Shown here in pieces: positions 3,646 through 55,818 of a stretch of 64,000 nucleotides of DNA. Where the stretch lies: IMG/VR virus record IMGVR_UViG_3300031951_000034, positions 1 to 64,000 of that record; one strand, given 5' to 3'. The stretch is from a virus. The notes below the pieces were generated by a model. It did not search any database. It was not told the DNA's origin and worked only from the letters and a program-made list of their open reading frames with translations. Position 1 is the first letter of the stretch. Each line of letters begins with the position of its first letter. A program made the translations under genes and the position numbers.

Positions 3646-4509
3646 ATGTATATGATTTTAGAAAATGTTTTGACAAAAGTGCATGAAAAACTAGCTAATG
3701 ACGAAATCGGGTTAGCAATGCAAAAGTGTGACTCTGAGATGGGTGAACTTGCTCTAACTTGCTTGAGAGCAAAAAGAGTTAAACAAGCGCAATCACCAGA
3801 CTTAAATTCAATAAAAGATTTTATTTTGAGTGGGTTAAATTCCGCTGGTGATAAAATTAATAGCATCCCAGGAGGAAAAAATATCGCTGGTGGCATAGGT
3901 GGGGCAGCGCTAGGTGGTCTATTTGGAAATCTTTCTTCATCTAAGGGCGAGTTCGAAACAGATGATGACTTCAAAAGAAGAAAAAGAAACTCAACACTGA
4001 GTGGGTTGGTTGCTGGCGGTGCTGTTGGTGCTTCTGTACCATCTATATTAAATGGCTTGGGCAACACAGCTAAATCTATTGTTGCTGGTGATGGTGACCA
4101 AAAAGATACAATTAAGGATAAAGCTAAGAGCGTACTTAATCCCAATACTATATTGGGCACAGTGGGACTTGGTGGTGGCGGATTTTTGAATAATTATTTA
4201 ACTAAAAATAATTTAGCAACACTAACGAATAAAGCTAGGGAAGAAGGTGGAGAAGCTTTTCAAAAGGCTATAGGAGACCACACATATGGATCTGATACAG
4301 CTTTATTTAAAAAGTTAGAGAAATTTATGTCAAAAAGGGTCGGCGGTGGACTTGGTTCTCCTATAGTTAGAAAAGACCCAATGATTATGAGGGCATTAAA
4401 GAGTGCTTTAAAGAGAAAAATTTTATTACCGGTTGCTGGAGCTGCTGCGCTACCAGCATTAAATGAATTGTATCTTGGGGACAAATTCTTCGATAAACCA
4501 GCATTTTAA
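3646..4509 (+). CDS. glycine-zipper putative head-internal/ejection protein
   Basis: GxxxG-rich segments IAGGIGGAALGGLFG, GLVAGGAVGA, LGTVGLGGGG. N-terminal KLA and KQA motifs. Confidence 0.5.
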   Translation: MYMILENVLTKVHEKLANDEIGLAMQKCDSEMGELALTCLRAKRVKQAQSPDLNSIKDFILSGLNSAGDKINSIPGGKNIAGGIGGAALGGLFGNLSSSKGEFETDDDFKRRKRNSTLSGLVAGGAVGASVPSILNGLGNTAKSIVAGDGDQKDTIKDKAKSVLNPNTILGTVGLGGGGFLNNYLTKNNLATLTNKAREEGGEAFQKAIGDHTYGSDTALFKKLEKFMSKRVGGGLGSPIVRKDPMIMRALKSALKRKILLPVAGAAALPALNELYLGDKFFDKPAF

Positions 4510-4512
4510 TAA

Positions 4513-5841
4513 ATGAGAAAATTAATTTTCAACGACTCGTTTGAGTATCCAGATGCGGAGTATCTGGTCAAAATAATTGATGACCCACAGAGAAGGGATA
4601 AAATAGCTTCGTCTGTTAGACATAGCTGGGGGGACATAGAGCCAATAAAAAATCACGCAATAATTCACTTAATTGCGCTTGGATCATTCGAAAAGACCGG
4701 AAGCAATTTAAACTTTGATGCTTTTGAGGAGGAGGTTTGTAAAAAATCTCATCCAACTTTCGTGAAGAAAGCTAAATTATACAGGCATCATAATAGTAAA
4801 GTCCCACATGAGCAGAGAGATGGAGACGTAATTAAATCTGCATACAATGAAAAAATGGGAAGAGTTGAGTTAGCTATTGCCGCTAATATAGACAAATGTG
4901 CTGACTGGCTTGGCAGAGTTGAAAGAGGTGGAGATGTTAAATTTTCTATGGGCTGGCATTGCGATAATGATGTTTGCTCTATATGCGGAAATGTAAGTAA
5001 AGCCCCGTCTGAATATTGCATTCACGTCAAGAAGGCCGCTCCACATCCATTTGGTAGAAATAAGATATTGTCAGATGGTAGAAAGTGTTTTGTATATAAC
5101 AGAGAGGGGTACTGGAACGACATATCATTTGTTGATCGTGGGGCAGACATGATAGCAATGGATTTAGCTAAAATCGCTGGGTTAGACCCAAGTGAGCCAA
5201 TGGGGGGAGCTGAACTAGCAGAGCTAATAGAAAATAGGATTTTATCTACACCCAAACTAGCTATAGCTGAAAAACTTTCTAAAATTCAAAAATACATAGA
5301 TGCAGTTGGCGTTAATGCTCCAAAAAATGTTTTAGACAAAACAGATCTATCTGAATCGGCAATAAGAGAATTACAGAAAAAAAATCCAAAAGATATGTTT
5401 GGTTGCTTATCAAAGAATGCATCAATTCTTCCTTTTAGGGTTTTTTATAAACTTGCTTCTGGATCTAGGTATAATGACTTTAAAAATTTAATAGACGAAA
5501 CAGAAGATGTAATAAGTGAGTGCATAAGACTTGAACTTAAAGAGGCTTCCAGTTTAGAGCAAATTGCATCTATCCATGACTTTGATTCATCTTGTAGTGG
5601 AAATATATCCATTACACAAAACACAAAAAACGAAATAAATAAATTTATCTTATCTTCAGAAGTTCAGGACGAAAAAATAAAAAAAGCAGTTCTTTACAAT
5701 GAGGAATTAAATGATAAAAAAACTTCTATAAAGCCAGAGTCTCGTGCTATGGTAAGACAATACCTAGCTTACAAGGTTGCTGCTTTAAATGATATATCCG
5801 CTAATGATGATGTAATATTCAATGCTTTTATGTTGAATTGA
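4513..5841 (+). CDS. prohead (maturation) protease
   Basis: Directly precedes scaffold and MCP. His in LYRHHN and Ser in KFSMGW, followed by a CSICGN...YCIH Zn-finger and ISFV. This layout fits HK97/herpes-fold phage prohead proteases. Confidence 0.7.
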   Translation: MRKLIFNDSFEYPDAEYLVKIIDDPQRRDKIASSVRHSWGDIEPIKNHAIIHLIALGSFEKTGSNLNFDAFEEEVCKKSHPTFVKKAKLYRHHNSKVPHEQRDGDVIKSAYNEKMGRVELAIAANIDKCADWLGRVERGGDVKFSMGWHCDNDVCSICGNVSKAPSEYCIHVKKAAPHPFGRNKILSDGRKCFVYNREGYWNDISFVDRGADMIAMDLAKIAGLDPSEPMGGAELAELIENRILSTPKLAIAEKLSKIQKYIDAVGVNAPKNVLDKTDLSESAIRELQKKNPKDMFGCLSKNASILPFRVFYKLASGSRYNDFKNLIDETEDVISECIRLELKEASSLEQIASIHDFDSSCSGNISITQNTKNEINKFILSSEVQDEKIKKAVLYNEELNDKKTSIKPESRAMVRQYLAYKVAALNDISANDDVIFNAFMLN

Positions 5842-5902: not shown

Positions 5903-7597
5903 ATGAGTAAAAGAAAAGCTCCCAAATTTAACACAGTCCTTGAAGACTTTCGCAGATTCATCGGTGAATCTAAAACAGCTGAAGAGTCCCAAGGAAATAA
6001 CGAAACATCCATCTCAAAGGGCACTAGTGACTCTGAAGTAAATCAAGCTCTTCCTGGTTCTGGAAAAGCAACCGGTTCTAATTCAGACAAGGGGTTGTCC
6101 ATGGGTGTCGAAGCCACAGAAAAAGCTCCAGGAACAAAAGAGCCAACTCAAGAAGAGCGTTCCAGAAAAGAGTGTTCGCCATCTAGCAAGATTGCTGAGG
6201 ATGGTTCTGCTGCTGACCTTGTTAACAAACTTTTGAGTAATATCAAGCTTGCCACAGAAGAGCTCGAAAAACAGGCTGAAATGCCAGAGCAATTAAAGAA
6301 GGTTGTGGAAGAAAAAAAAGAGGATTCTGCTGAAGAAAAAGAAGAGTCGTCTGATGAAAAGGAAGAAGACAAGGAAGACAAGGAAGACAAAGAAGCTGCC
6401 GAAAAAAAATTAACAGAGGCTCAAAAAAAAATTGATTTAAACTCCAATGGCAAAATAGAGTCGAAAGATCTAGAAGCCCTCAGAAAAGAAGACAAACCCA
6501 AGGTTGCAGAAGATACAGTTAACACAGAAGAGGGTAAAGAAGAGGGTAAAGAAGAGGTTAAAGAAGCAAGCTCCAATGAAATAGACGAAGATGCGTTAGC
6601 GGAAAAAATTGCAATGCACTACAGAAATGTCTCTGTAGGATATGAATTAGGCAAGTTCCTGTTTAAGACCCTTGAGGATAAAATGGCTGAAGAAGCTGTA
6701 GCCCCCCAAGAAGCTCCAGAAGCTGGTTCGGCTGAAGGATCTGAGATTGAACTTATATTGCAAGCATTACAAGAATTAGTTCAAGAAGGACAAATATCAG
6801 AGGAGCAAGCACAACAGGTTTTAATGCAACTTCAATCTGCTACTGAGGGTGGCGCTGCTCCAGAAGGTGCTGCACCTGAACAGGAAGAAGCTCCAGAGGA
6901 AGCAACAGAAGAAGCTCCAGAAGAAGAAGAGCCCAAAACAGCATCTCTTTTTTCTGAAAAAGAAATAAAAGAAATTGAGACTAATATTAATAGTAAAGTA
7001 GCTGAATGGGTTTCTGAAGGCAAAACAGACAAAGAAATAACTGAACTCGTTAAGCAAGCTGCTGAAAACGATGCGAAAATTATTAACGAAAAAAAATCAG
7101 AAAAATTAGCCGCTGATGCTAATAACAGAAAGCTTGCAGCACTTGTTGAGCTTGGTTATTCGACTGAGCAAATCGAGGAATATTTCAAGACAGCACAGCA
7201 GCAAGATGAATTAAACAAAGCCATTGATAAAATGGTTTGCGATAAAGTTGCTGAGTTGAAAGAAGCTGGCAAAAATGACGCTGAAATAACTGAATACCTT
7301 AATCAAGCTGCCGTTGAGGACGCTAAATTAATTAAGTCCGCAATGGAACAAGAAAGTATCCAGGCCGCTATCTTAAATAAAGTCGCTGAAGAGAGAAAGC
7401 AAAAGATGGCCAATGTGTCTCCAGAAGTTCAACAAATCCTTCAAGCGCTTGAAGCCCTTCTTCAGTCTGGTCAGATCAGCGAAGAAGAAGCTATGCAAGT
7501 ATTACAAGAATTAGGCTTATCTGGCGGAGGAGAAGAAGCCGCTGCTGCACCAGCTGCACCCGAGGCTCAAGCTCCAGTTCCACCGCAAGCTGCTTAA
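5903..7597 (+). CDS. capsid scaffolding protein
   Basis: 564 aa, very acidic Glu/Ala/Lys-rich coiled-coil with internal repeats. Lies between protease and MCP. Confidence 0.7.
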   Translation: MSKRKAPKFNTVLEDFRRFIGESKTAEESQGNNETSISKGTSDSEVNQALPGSGKATGSNSDKGLSMGVEATEKAPGTKEPTQEERSRKECSPSSKIAEDGSAADLVNKLLSNIKLATEELEKQAEMPEQLKKVVEEKKEDSAEEKEESSDEKEEDKEDKEDKEAAEKKLTEAQKKIDLNSNGKIESKDLEALRKEDKPKVAEDTVNTEEGKEEGKEEVKEASSNEIDEDALAEKIAMHYRNVSVGYELGKFLFKTLEDKMAEEAVAPQEAPEAGSAEGSEIELILQALQELVQEGQISEEQAQQVLMQLQSATEGGAAPEGAAPEQEEAPEEATEEAPEEEEPKTASLFSEKEIKEIETNINSKVAEWVSEGKTDKEITELVKQAAENDAKIINEKKSEKLAADANNRKLAALVELGYSTEQIEEYFKTAQQQDELNKAIDKMVCDKVAELKEAGKNDAEITEYLNQAAVEDAKLIKSAMEQESIQAAILNKVAEERKQKMANVSPEVQQILQALEALLQSGQISEEEAMQVLQELGLSGGGEEAAAAPAAPEAQAPVPPQAA

Positions 7598-54192: not shown

Positions 54193-54465
54193 ATGAATGA
54201 AACTGTAATACAAAAAATTACCGACTTAACCGACAAACTATACGAGTTAATTGGTCGGGACCACCACAAGGACCGAGACTGTCATTATTTTATAGAGACA
54301 AAGTGGAGCTACGGAAGACCACCGGTATATGTGATTGTACATAATGGATATATTTTTGATGACATCAGTGAAGAATGGGCTAGTTATGAATTGGCCTGTA
54401 TAAGGTTAAAAGAATTGCTGGAAAGACATGTAAAGTATTTAATGGAATTAGATACGGAACAATAG
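54193..54465 (+). CDS. hypothetical protein
   Basis: Start likely at 54193. Contains DHHKDRDCHY. Confidence 0.5.
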   Translation: MNETVIQKITDLTDKLYELIGRDHHKDRDCHYFIETKWSYGRPPVYVIVHNGYIFDDISEEWASYELACIRLKELLERHVKYLMELDTEQ

Positions 54466-54606
54466 GGGGGGTACCTCAAAAATATACATTTTTTGCCATA
54501 ATATAATGTAGATATCCTTTATCTATCTAATATATTGTGTAAGCCTTTGGTTTATTGGGTATATTTGTATTTATCATATTGTAGTTTAGTATTGATCATA
54601 AGTTGA

Positions 54607-54655
54607 TGGTTAAATCACGCCAATCCTCTTTGGATGGGGGATTGGCGTGAAACCA
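54607..54655. other. strong hairpin upstream of tRNA
   Basis: 12-bp perfect arms TCACGCCAATCC/GGATTGGCGTGA plus an outer TGGTT/AACCA pair. Confidence 0.7.
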
Positions 54656-54675
54656 ATTTTACAATAATTATTATT

Positions 54676-54748
<73 letters not shown>

Positions 54749-54810
54749 CTTTTTTGTGGTGCATACTTTTAGTGTAATAGTTAAAGCCTGATTTAATCTA
54801 TTAACACTAA

Positions 54811-54881
54811 ACTCGACTTGGCGAGTATAAACAGGTATCTAAGCCAAGTGCGGCAAACCATATGAGTATGGTTGCAATATC
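54811..54881 (+). ncRNA. pistol-class self-cleaving ribozyme (atypical cleavage junction)
   Basis: P1 ACTCG/CGAGT, loop ACTTGG pairing with CCAAGT (pseudoknot), ATAAACAG linker, CTAAG, GCG core, P3 GCAAACCATA/TATGGTTGC, P2 GGTAT/ATATC. Confidence 0.75.
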
Positions 54882-55018
54882 CCGATAGCAGCGTTTTGCT
54901 ATCGGCTAGTTGCCTCATTGAACGATAATGAGGTGAAACTGCATGGGAACGATCATCGTTCGATTAGAGCAGTGCAGTGGCTAGAAAAACCGGTGTTCCT
55001 ATACAGAGCTCTACCGGC
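54882..55018 (+). ncRNA. unknown structured RNA: hairpin + three-way junction with complementary loops + hairpin
   Basis: CCGATAGCA/TGCTATCGG, CTAGTT/GGCTAG closing stem, CCTCATT/AATGAGG with loop GAACGAT, ACTGCA/TGCAGT with inner loop ATCGTTC, CCGGT/ACCGG. Confidence 0.55.
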
Positions 55019-55043
55019 AATTTTCGTCGCCGACAGGCAAAAA

Positions 55044-55113
55044 AACCTCTAACCGAGGTCATAACTTTAACCCGTAAAATAGGGTTAAAGACATTGACTC
55101 TCGGTTAGAGGTT
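55044..55113. terminator. 70-nt long inverted repeat at a convergent junction (bidirectional terminator / processing hairpin)
   Basis: AACCTCTAACCGAG/CTCGGTTAGAGGTT (14 bp) + GTCA/TGAC + CTTTAACCC/GGGTTAAAG. Overlaps the stop codon of the minus-strand gene. Confidence 0.6.
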
Positions 55114-55818
55114 ATTTCCATATAGCGGATCGTTACGCTTTTTGTTAGCTACTGAGTTAATTTCGGACGACAGGTTGTTTACTATGTCCTCCAATTGATC
55201 TTCAGAGATCCATGGCAACATTTTGATTTGCTTAAACAGAAGAACGGACTGGTCTCTTATGTATTCATTTAAGAGTCCGGTAGCATAATCTGATTTTGAA
55301 TCCATTTGATTCATCTCTGCTCCGTATGTGCTGCCAAGATATTTCTCTGGCATTTTTGCAAAATGCAATTGAGGAGGAGGAGCAGTAAAGCCTTCCTGAT
55401 CTAGTACAACACCAACTAAAGAGGATATATCAGTTGAAAATAATTCAGAATCGTCATCGTCATTTAGAGAAACCTCTATTACGCCCCATGTAAATTCTGC
55501 AACGGTCATTTCTGCTAATTCGTCTGGATCATTTTCATTATTTAACACAGAGCATACTGCTGTGAACGCTACCCAGTCTTTATAGAAACTATTACTAGTA
55601 ATTGACGATATTATAGAGTGTAATCTATCAAGATTCTCTTCATCTATTTTTACGTCCAGTGTATCAGTAAGCTCCATCGCAAGAGTCTCTGGTTCCCATT
55701 CGTAAATGTCAGTACCAAAAAAATGAAGAGCTATTGCATGAGACACAGTAGCCATTGTACCAGGGGTAGCCATTATTCTTCCAGCTACTTCCTGGTCTTT
55801 TGTTTTGTATGGTAACAT
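55105..55818 (-). CDS. hypothetical head/packaging-module protein
   Basis: 237 aa, coupled (3 nt gap) to the upstream minus-strand gene. Confidence 0.55.
   Translation of the reverse strand: MLPYKTKDQEVAGRIMATPGTMATVSHAIALHFFGTDIYEWEPETLAMELTDTLDVKIDEENLDRLHSIISSITSNSFYKDWVAFTAVCSVLNNENDPDELAEMTVAEFTWGVIEVSLNDDDDSELFSTDISSLVGVVLDQEGFTAPPPQLHFAKMPEKYLGSTYGAEMNQMDSKSDYATGLLNEYIRDQSVLLFKQIKMLPWISEDQLEDIVNNLSSEINSVANKKRNDPLYGNNL

Follow-up and report, generated by a model that had tools for sequence, protein, structure and literature searches.

A real, conserved and uncatalogued phage non-coding RNA lies directly downstream of a pistol ribozyme in the window, the 64,000-nucleotide stretch of viral DNA analyzed here. 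It is a three-way junction with a covarying loop-loop helix between its two arms. The module of pistol ribozyme, hairpin H1 and junction was found in seven contigs, the window and six others, which represent four sequence types (the window with L010; L011-L013; L017; L018). Between these types the sequence of the junction RNA is almost unshared. A preliminary description, made from the letters of the window, had proposed such a junction, and every element and coordinate that it listed was recovered from the sequence, from H1 through the junction stems, hairpin A and arm B to the 3′ hairpin (Table 1). The two loops, GAACGAT and ATCGTTC, are exact reverse complements, as had been claimed. That the RNA is uncatalogued was also borne out: positions 54450-55150 were searched against Rfam 15, and no match for the element was found at E values up to 10.

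The window derives from a 131-kb IMG/VR contig that is about 73% complete. Its glycosyltransferase is 69-71% identical to those of the Synechococcus phages S-CAM7 and ACG-2014f, and by its sequence the host phage is judged to be a freshwater relative of the T4-like cyanomyoviruses. The sequencing runs that contain the stretch are mostly labeled as freshwater or lake water, several as 'fungus metagenome'. The RNA is located in a gene-free island, bounded by the last plus-strand ORF (ending at 54465) and a convergent gene for a 237-aa protein. From 5′ to 3′, the island consists of a strong hairpin, tRNA-Met, a spacer hairpin, the pistol ribozyme, H1 with the junction element and a long hairpin. 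The first of these hairpins (about 14 bp, 54607-54655, CACGCCAATCC...GGATTGGCGTG) is placed directly 5′ of the tRNA and is kept in L010 with a changed loop. The long hairpin at the opposite end could possibly serve as a back-stop for the plus strand as well. Three small ORFs run across the element (54918-55052, 54977-55108 and 54793-54918). They were rejected as genes because a 1-nt deletion and a 3-nt insertion relative to L010 fall inside them and the other types are unalignable as protein. The genes neighboring the RNA encode glycosyltransferases, collagen-like tail-fibre proteins and unknowns, and no head or packaging gene was found among the adjoining genes of the window. The preliminary description had placed head-type genes next to the element and had suggested a link to packaging. 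As no head genes adjoin the element in this T4-like phage, that link is unsupported.

Table 1. Features of the RNA island in the window and of the GOLLD-associated modules in L017 and L018. Positions refer to the window unless a contig is named.
Feature	Position	Strand	Remarks
tRNA-Met(CAU)	54676-54749	+	At the head of the ncRNA island; Rfam tRNA 71.6 bits; ARAGORN anticodon CAT
Pistol self-cleaving ribozyme	54811-54876	+	RF02679, 44.5 bits (gathering score 34.5)
H1, perfect 9-bp hairpin	54882-54890 with 54897-54905	+	In the minimum-energy fold; between ribozyme and junction
Three-way junction	54906-54984	+	Sequence and minimum-energy fold; same topology in relatives
Closing stem P1, CTAGTT/GGCTAG	54906-54911 with 54979-54984	+	Four Watson-Crick and two G-U pairs
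Hairpin PA, CCTCATT/AATGAGG	54913-54933	+	Sequence; fold
Loop A, GAACGAT	54920-54926	+	Apical loop of PA
Arm PB, outer ACTGCA/TGCAGT, weak inner GATC/GATT	54938-54978	+	Sequence; fold
Second GAACGAT copy	54947-54953	+	Could hide loop B in a local hairpin of 6 bp
Loop B, ATCGTTC	54955-54961	+	Exact reverse complement of loop A
A-rich linker, terminator-like hairpin (54990-55017) and TTTT (55021-55024)	54985-55024	+	Sequence; fold
Long hairpin	55040-55118		Terminator for the convergent 237-aa gene; kept in L010-L014
237-aa gene	55105-55818	-	Convergent; 3′ of the RNA island
GOLLD RNA (RF02032)	L017:5701-6106		150 bits, E 1.5e-41
Pistol ribozyme	L017:6118-6185		Starts 9-11 nt after the GOLLD match
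GOLLD RNA (RF02032)	L018:2546-2950		141 bits
Pistol ribozyme	L018:2960-3027		Starts 9-11 nt after the GOLLD match

For the plus strand of the window the fold has z scores of -3.75 (144 nt) and -3.99 (119 nt), compared to -2.57 for the minus strand. The helices of the plus strand hold five G-U pairs, which are A-C mismatches on the opposite strand and therefore mark the plus strand as the folded one. In the unconstrained minimum-energy fold H1, P1, PA and the outer stem of PB are kept, an A-rich joiner separates PA from PB, and loop B is buried in a GAACGA/TCGTTC hairpin. Freeing both loops costs 3.6 kcal/mol in the window; the loop-loop duplex amounts to -6.8 kcal/mol. The A-rich linker, terminator-like hairpin and T tract that follow the junction form the probable 3′ end of a small RNA. 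Metatranscriptome contigs from four freshwater runs cover the tRNA and the pistol up to 54898, plus the flanking genes. None of them reaches into 54899-55126, although absence is not something that such contigs can show. They also contain the L010-type variant. In run X16, two variants of the tRNA-pistol spacer were observed (window 54702-54833), the window's own and the L010 type, the latter set apart by a 1-nt deletion and five substitutions, so this lake sample contains both phage lineages.

The ribozyme that the preliminary description had noted upstream is a bona fide pistol located directly 5′ of the junction RNA. The matches in L010-L013, L017 and L018 score 40.9-55.8 bits, every member of the family exceeds the Rfam cut-off, and the sequence of pistol P1 and pseudoknot is identical in all seven. 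Alignment to the Rfam consensus places the GU cleavage dinucleotide at 54871/54872; the downstream RNA released by the predicted cleavage would begin at 54872 with a 5′-OH. The junction RNA is probably released at its 5′ end in this manner, and the ribozyme would thus set the 5′ end as had been supposed. Pistol ribozymes were discovered in 2015 and their biological role has been open since; the function of self-cleaving ribozymes in bacteria and phages is likewise described as open (PMC6765202). In the literature, no paper was found that ties pistol ribozymes to GOLLD or to a downstream RNA of this kind.

When positions 54560-55130 were compared by blastn to 50,697 phage records, the tRNA was the sole match. 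Relatives were obtained by two other routes: homologs of the flanking 237-aa protein were used to scan JGI metagenomes, and IMG/VR was scanned for the pistol P1 plus linker sequence, which yielded L017 and L018. L010 encodes a 237-aa protein that is 94% identical and contains a near-identical RNA island, with an identical pistol, a junction one deletion apart and five changes in the spacer of about 60 nt between tRNA and pistol. In L011, L012 and L013 the proteins are 73% identical, and tRNA-Met and pistol are followed by a divergent downstream element. The tRNA-Met is kept in L010-L014, in L014 without pistol or element. L001, the nearest IMG/VR relative by the 237-aa gene, was found to contain no tRNA, pistol or element. 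The module thus occurs in two settings, namely after tRNA-Met and facing the 237-aa gene (window, L010-L013) and after GOLLD RNA (L017, L018).

The slot 3′ of the 237-aa gene is variable in its content: it holds nothing in L001, the tRNA alone in L014 and a tmRNA in L008, L009 and L016. Full-length phage tmRNAs (RF00023, 73-103 bits) were identified at 4678-5111 on the minus strand of the latter three contigs, where the window has tRNA, pistol and junction RNA, and at 3773-4201 on the plus strand of L017.

The members were folded singly with both loop segments held unpaired. The same topology was obtained in every type, and freeing the loops costs 1.2-3.6 kcal/mol, or 7.8 kcal/mol for L010. 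The shared architecture consists of H1, a closing stem P1 of 4-6 bp, a hairpin PA (stem 6-9 bp, loop 6-12 nt), a joiner of 4-5 nt rich in A and the arm PB. In all types PB comprises an outer stem of 5-8 bp, an internal loop, an inner stem of 3-7 bp and a loop of 6-7 nt. The internal loop ranges from 4x4 to 7x6 and carries a purine-G-G triplet (GGG/AGG) on its 5′ strand in every type. At the position of H1 all four types have a hairpin of differing sequence, with 8 of the 12 model pairs changed on both sides. A hairpin also follows the junction in all four types, preceded by an A-rich linker in three of them; in L011-L013 this hairpin is succeeded by a T run, and in L018 it stands behind an A-rich linker. 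Short, A-rich strands join the helices of the junction, and their sequence is not kept from one type to another.

When a covariance model (R1) was derived from L011-L013 only, it found the window (19.3 bits, E 0.0065), L017 (17.2 bits) and L010 (14.6 bits), each at the position expected. These rank as the best hits once L011-L013 and the reverse-strand hairpins of those three sequences are set aside; L018 was not recovered in this search. In the model-fitted alignment A7, 96.9% of the cells are standard pairs, compared to 75% in shuffles and 36-47% with slid partners, and 27 of the 36 pairs are changed on both sides; being fitted to the structure, this alignment leans towards it, and it misplaces the junction P1 of the window. 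A model of the junction only (R2) was too weak to lift the window above noise. Model R3, built from the three types alignable by R1 and thus excluding L018, found no further member at about 200 other pistol loci (1.8 Mb in total). Behind 193 pistols, a strict descriptor of the kissing-loop junction returned the known members only, and a loose one did not separate real sequences from shuffles. A minimum-energy-fold screen of pistol flanks gave five hits without shared architecture, some of which look coding. The exact pattern GAACGAT...GAACGATCATCGTTC had 0 matches in viral contigs, and a contig scan with a pistol-derived 17-mer gave chance matches only, most of them apparently within coding sequence as read from their flanks. 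CTAG was considered as a recurrent motif of these RNAs and dropped, its enrichment being only 1.6-fold.

The complementarity of the two loops is kept with changed letters. In the window and L010, loop A GAACGAT faces loop B ATCGTTC over 7 nt; in L011-L013, GTCGAAT faces ATTCGAC, again over 7 nt. The pair in L017 is TGTGGA and TCCACA (6 nt), and in L018 TCACT and AGTGA (5 nt, or 6 with a G-U pair). For L011-L013 and L017 the complement of loop A coincides exactly with the apical loop of PB. Because the loops are out of register in the MAFFT alignment of the four types (A3), the loop-loop pairs were analyzed by hand and by permuting both loop A and the entire inside of PB. This gave permutation p values of 8e-4 for the window and 6e-3, 1.8e-2 and 6e-2 for the other three types. 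Over these three, which did not generate the hypothesis, Fisher's combined p is 5.5e-4. The statistics are modest because there are only four independent types. The sequences indicate that selection keeps the two arm loops complementary over 5-7 bases, and the retention of this complementarity in homologs, on which the preliminary description had staked its proposal, is upheld. Conservation is limited to the shape and the loop-loop helix, which speaks for a structural RNA rather than for a riboswitch aptamer, a second ribozyme or an antisense RNA with a fixed target.

In L017 and L018, a non-coding region of more than 650 nt lies 5′ of the module. It is 89% identical between the two contigs, with compensatory changes, and its 3′ part matches GOLLD. 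Because the GOLLD match ends so shortly before the pistol, the ribozyme probably makes the 3′ end of GOLLD in these two phages. On the L022/L274 contig, a pistol (L022:3870-3900) is situated about 300 nt 5′ of the conserved 3′ domain of GOLLD (L274:1501-1883, 192.7 bits). There the pistol may release the 5′ end of GOLLD, in a mirror arrangement of L017 and L018. No GOLLD was found in the 131-kb contig of the window (73% complete) or within 2.5 kb in L010-L013, so the link to GOLLD is not obligatory. Among about 90 unique IMG/VR flanks that follow the conserved GOLLD 3′-end motif, a pistol is present in L017 and L018 only. Since model R3 also finds no such junction behind the other pistols, pistol and RNA are regarded as one narrow module.

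Within the first 100 nt or so, the 3′ flanks of GOLLD in L317, L333, L362-L364, L387 and L389 contain a long imperfect stem, e.g. CTTATTAGATGA...TCTTCTAATAAG, which encloses two small hairpins and is often followed by a tRNA. This stem may be a conserved 3′ appendage of GOLLD or a terminator.

Other structured RNAs were observed behind pistol ribozymes. A different recurrent RNA is located 20-130 nt after the pistol in L040, L076, L086, L127, L196, L226, L232, L246 and L272. Its hairpin has TGAAAC within the loop and is followed by GTTTCA within about 5-15 nt, an H-type pseudoknot, and its enclosing stem shows a compensatory change between L040 and L086 (AGGGC/GCCCT vs AGAGC/GCTCT). In L057 and L124, a larger multi-branched RNA extends from about 10 to 160 nt past the pistol. 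It is conserved between both contigs, with GGGCGC/GCGCCC as its closing stem, and two of its hairpin loops are complementary (CTGCAA/TTGCAG). Across 170 non-redundant pistol 3′ flanks (L019-L273), 41 loops with a complement of at least 6 nt within 60 nt downstream were counted; loop permutation gives an expectation of 19.2, so the excess is about twofold. Pseudoknotted or kissing RNAs may thus follow many of the pistols in phages.

The reading preferred here, which we infer from the sequences and offer as possible rather than probable, is that this region encodes a small non-coding RNA of about 150 nt (approximately 54872-55024), which is transcribed behind tRNA-Met. Pistol cleavage would free the 5′ end and leave a 5′-OH, and the terminator-like hairpin is predicted to end the RNA near 55024. 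Loops A and B would then pair within one molecule, with the internal loop of PB acting as hinge. Such pairing would clamp both arms into a compact, closed and nuclease-resistant body, which would serve in trans as a stable RNA that binds protein or has a structural role. The junction arms of the purine and lysine riboswitches are clamped by intramolecular loop-loop pairing in the same way. For pairing in cis speak the adjacency of the arms and the hinge-like internal loop, which would sit at about the height of the PA loop. The outer stem of PB (5-8 bp) is near PA (6-9 bp) in height, so that the hinge could bring loop B to loop A. Against it, the geometry does not appear clearly favorable, as PB is about twice as long as PA, and a coaxial stack of PA, kissing helix and PB looks strained in L011-L013 and L017 because the types with 4-nt linkers have the longest inner stems. 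Furthermore, loops of 6-7 nt that pair over their full length typically belong to intermolecular kissing complexes, for example ColE1 RNA I/II and TAR/TAR*.

Pairing of the same loops could instead be intermolecular, with loop A of each copy bound to loop B of its neighbor. The products would be dimers, rings or larger assemblies made of RNA only, comparable to phi29 pRNA or the GOLLD and ROOL cages, and such an RNA might assemble with or beside GOLLD. The covariation of the loops fits pairing in trans and in cis equally, the loops are fully complementary over 6-7 nt, and the greater length of PB, together with a distance from outer stem to loop B of 10-11 nt per strand in all four types, would suit a rod rather than a hinge. 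GOLLD is a 14-mer cage joined by intermolecular kissing loops, and a covarying loop-loop pairing in ROOL that was first taken as tertiary turned out to be quaternary (PMC12286853), a precedent that by analogy also weighs against pairing in cis. Large assemblies are also formed by RNAs of less than 200 nt, manA among them (bioRxiv 10.64898/2026.07.01.735769). Because the module adjoins GOLLD in two types, 9-11 nt downstream of it, multimerisation is a live possibility. However, GOLLD was found neither in the contig of the window nor within 2.5 kb in L010-L013, the high local concentration of the loops favors pairing in cis if this is sterically possible, and loop B is partly buried in the local hairpin in the window lineage. 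Pairing in trans is on balance somewhat unlikely. Its extension, in which copies of a self-assembling unit of about 150 nt would link into rings or cages and, in GOLLD-carrying phages, the unit would be an equimolar co-transcript of GOLLD and its co-assembling or cage-associated partner, is judged unlikely. The hairpin and junction might also be a cis-acting 3′ trailer that aids folding of the pistol, insulates it or promotes both termination and decay of the 3′ piece, the real product being the upstream tRNA or GOLLD with a 2′,3′-cyclic phosphate end. This would agree with the constant position of the module 3′ of a stable RNA (tRNA-Met in the window and L010-L013, GOLLD in L017 and L018), with the terminator-like hairpin that is always next and with the co-inheritance of pistol and module, model R3 finding no such junction behind about 200 other pistols. 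A trailer, however, has no need for a three-way junction whose loop complementarity is held through near-complete sequence turnover. Moreover, many other pistols in phage contigs lead directly into an apparent ribosome-binding site and start codon, as read from their flanks, with no such trailer, and the trailer reading is decidedly unlikely.

A conformational switch, with loop B alternating between the second GAACGAT and loop A, corresponds to the built-in alternative fold of the preliminary description. The local hairpin is real in the window and L010, where GAACGA/TCGTTC pairing is part of the minimum-energy fold and competes at 3.6 and 7.8 kcal/mol, respectively. The second copy and its sequestering hairpin are, however, confined to this type and absent in L011-L013, L017 and L018, where arm B presents the loop on an inner stem; this stem is 3-7 bp long in the family. 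A switch is thus not a property of the family. The window offers the element neither an expression platform nor a downstream gene on the same strand, and there are no conserved junction bases for a ligand, which makes the switch very improbable. Hardly any weight is given to the view that the RNA has no function, either as a chance fold of AT-rich intergenic sequence or because the 15-nt palindrome GAACGATCATCGTTC would serve a dimeric protein as its binding site on DNA. The palindrome is indeed perfect, but it has no second occurrence in the 131-kb contig and is therefore not a repeated operator, and neither it nor its half-sites recur there as operator-like sites. It is the RNA helices and the loop complement that are conserved, not the palindrome, and the G-U pairs mark the plus strand as folded. 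What is preferred, tentatively, remains the pistol-released RNA with loops paired in cis.

The locking of a pistol ribozyme to a conserved downstream RNA, together with pistols placed 9-11 nt after GOLLD or about 300 nt before its conserved domain in relatives, suggests a testable role for these ribozymes, namely that of 'end-maker for phage non-coding RNA operons'. If the RNA were a self-assembling unit, the job of the pistol would be to cut such operons into assembly-competent pieces. The element represents a compact new RNA family whose conserved information consists only of a shape and a covarying loop-loop helix, and the same signature in pRNA, ROOL and GOLLD proved to encode RNA-RNA assembly. 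With a core of about 110 nt it is short enough for quick experiments, and it may illuminate what GOLLD does.

When compared to known systems, the element resembles the pRNA of phi29 (RF00044) in being a small phage three-way-junction RNA with two mutually complementary, covarying arm loops. It differs in that the host is a T4-like myovirus instead of a phi29-like podovirus, no packaging genes adjoin it, the complement covers 5-7 nt instead of 4, and release is predicted to occur by a ribozyme. The pRNA model was not among the matches at E values up to 10 in positions 54450-55150. With GOLLD and ROOL (RF02032, RF03087; PMC12286853) it shares a phage origin, adjacency to tRNA and covarying kissing loops, whereas its core measures about 110 nt instead of 600-800 nt, neither model matches it and the linkage to GOLLD is not constant. 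That the element is GOLLD itself was rejected, as the GOLLD match in L017 ends at 6106, before pistol and element, and the contig of the window contains none.

The stable RNAs of the T4 tRNA cluster (species 1/RNA C and species 2/RNA D) are small, structured, co-transcribed with tRNAs and released by processing. The element resembles them by context only, in lying at the tRNA locus of a T4-type phage. Its predicted release relies on a self-cleaving ribozyme, whereas the T4 RNAs use host RNases, and to our knowledge no kissing-loop junction has been described for the T4 stable RNAs. A closing stem and two arms with pairing loops are also found in the purine (RF00167) and lysine riboswitches and in pseudoknotted hammerheads; the lysine riboswitch has a 6-bp loop-loop helix with a bent arm. 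Unlike ligand-binding junctions, the element keeps no nucleotides constant in its junction or core, gives no Rfam hit and has no gene downstream that it could regulate. A ligand-binding junction of the purine-riboswitch type was rejected because no Rfam hit was obtained and the junction strands are not conserved among the four types. A hammerhead was rejected as well, since there is no CUGANGA and no Rfam hammerhead hit, and only GAAA stands between the arms in the window. Finally, theta ribozymes cut the 3′ end of the tRNA itself. The pistol of the window is predicted to cut near its own 3′ end, 62 nt after the tRNA, and would therefore define the 5′ end of the next RNA. What the element shares with the theta (HDV-like) ribozymes, which adjoin viral tRNAs (PMC10879173), is a self-cleaving ribozyme at a phage tRNA locus that would make an RNA end.
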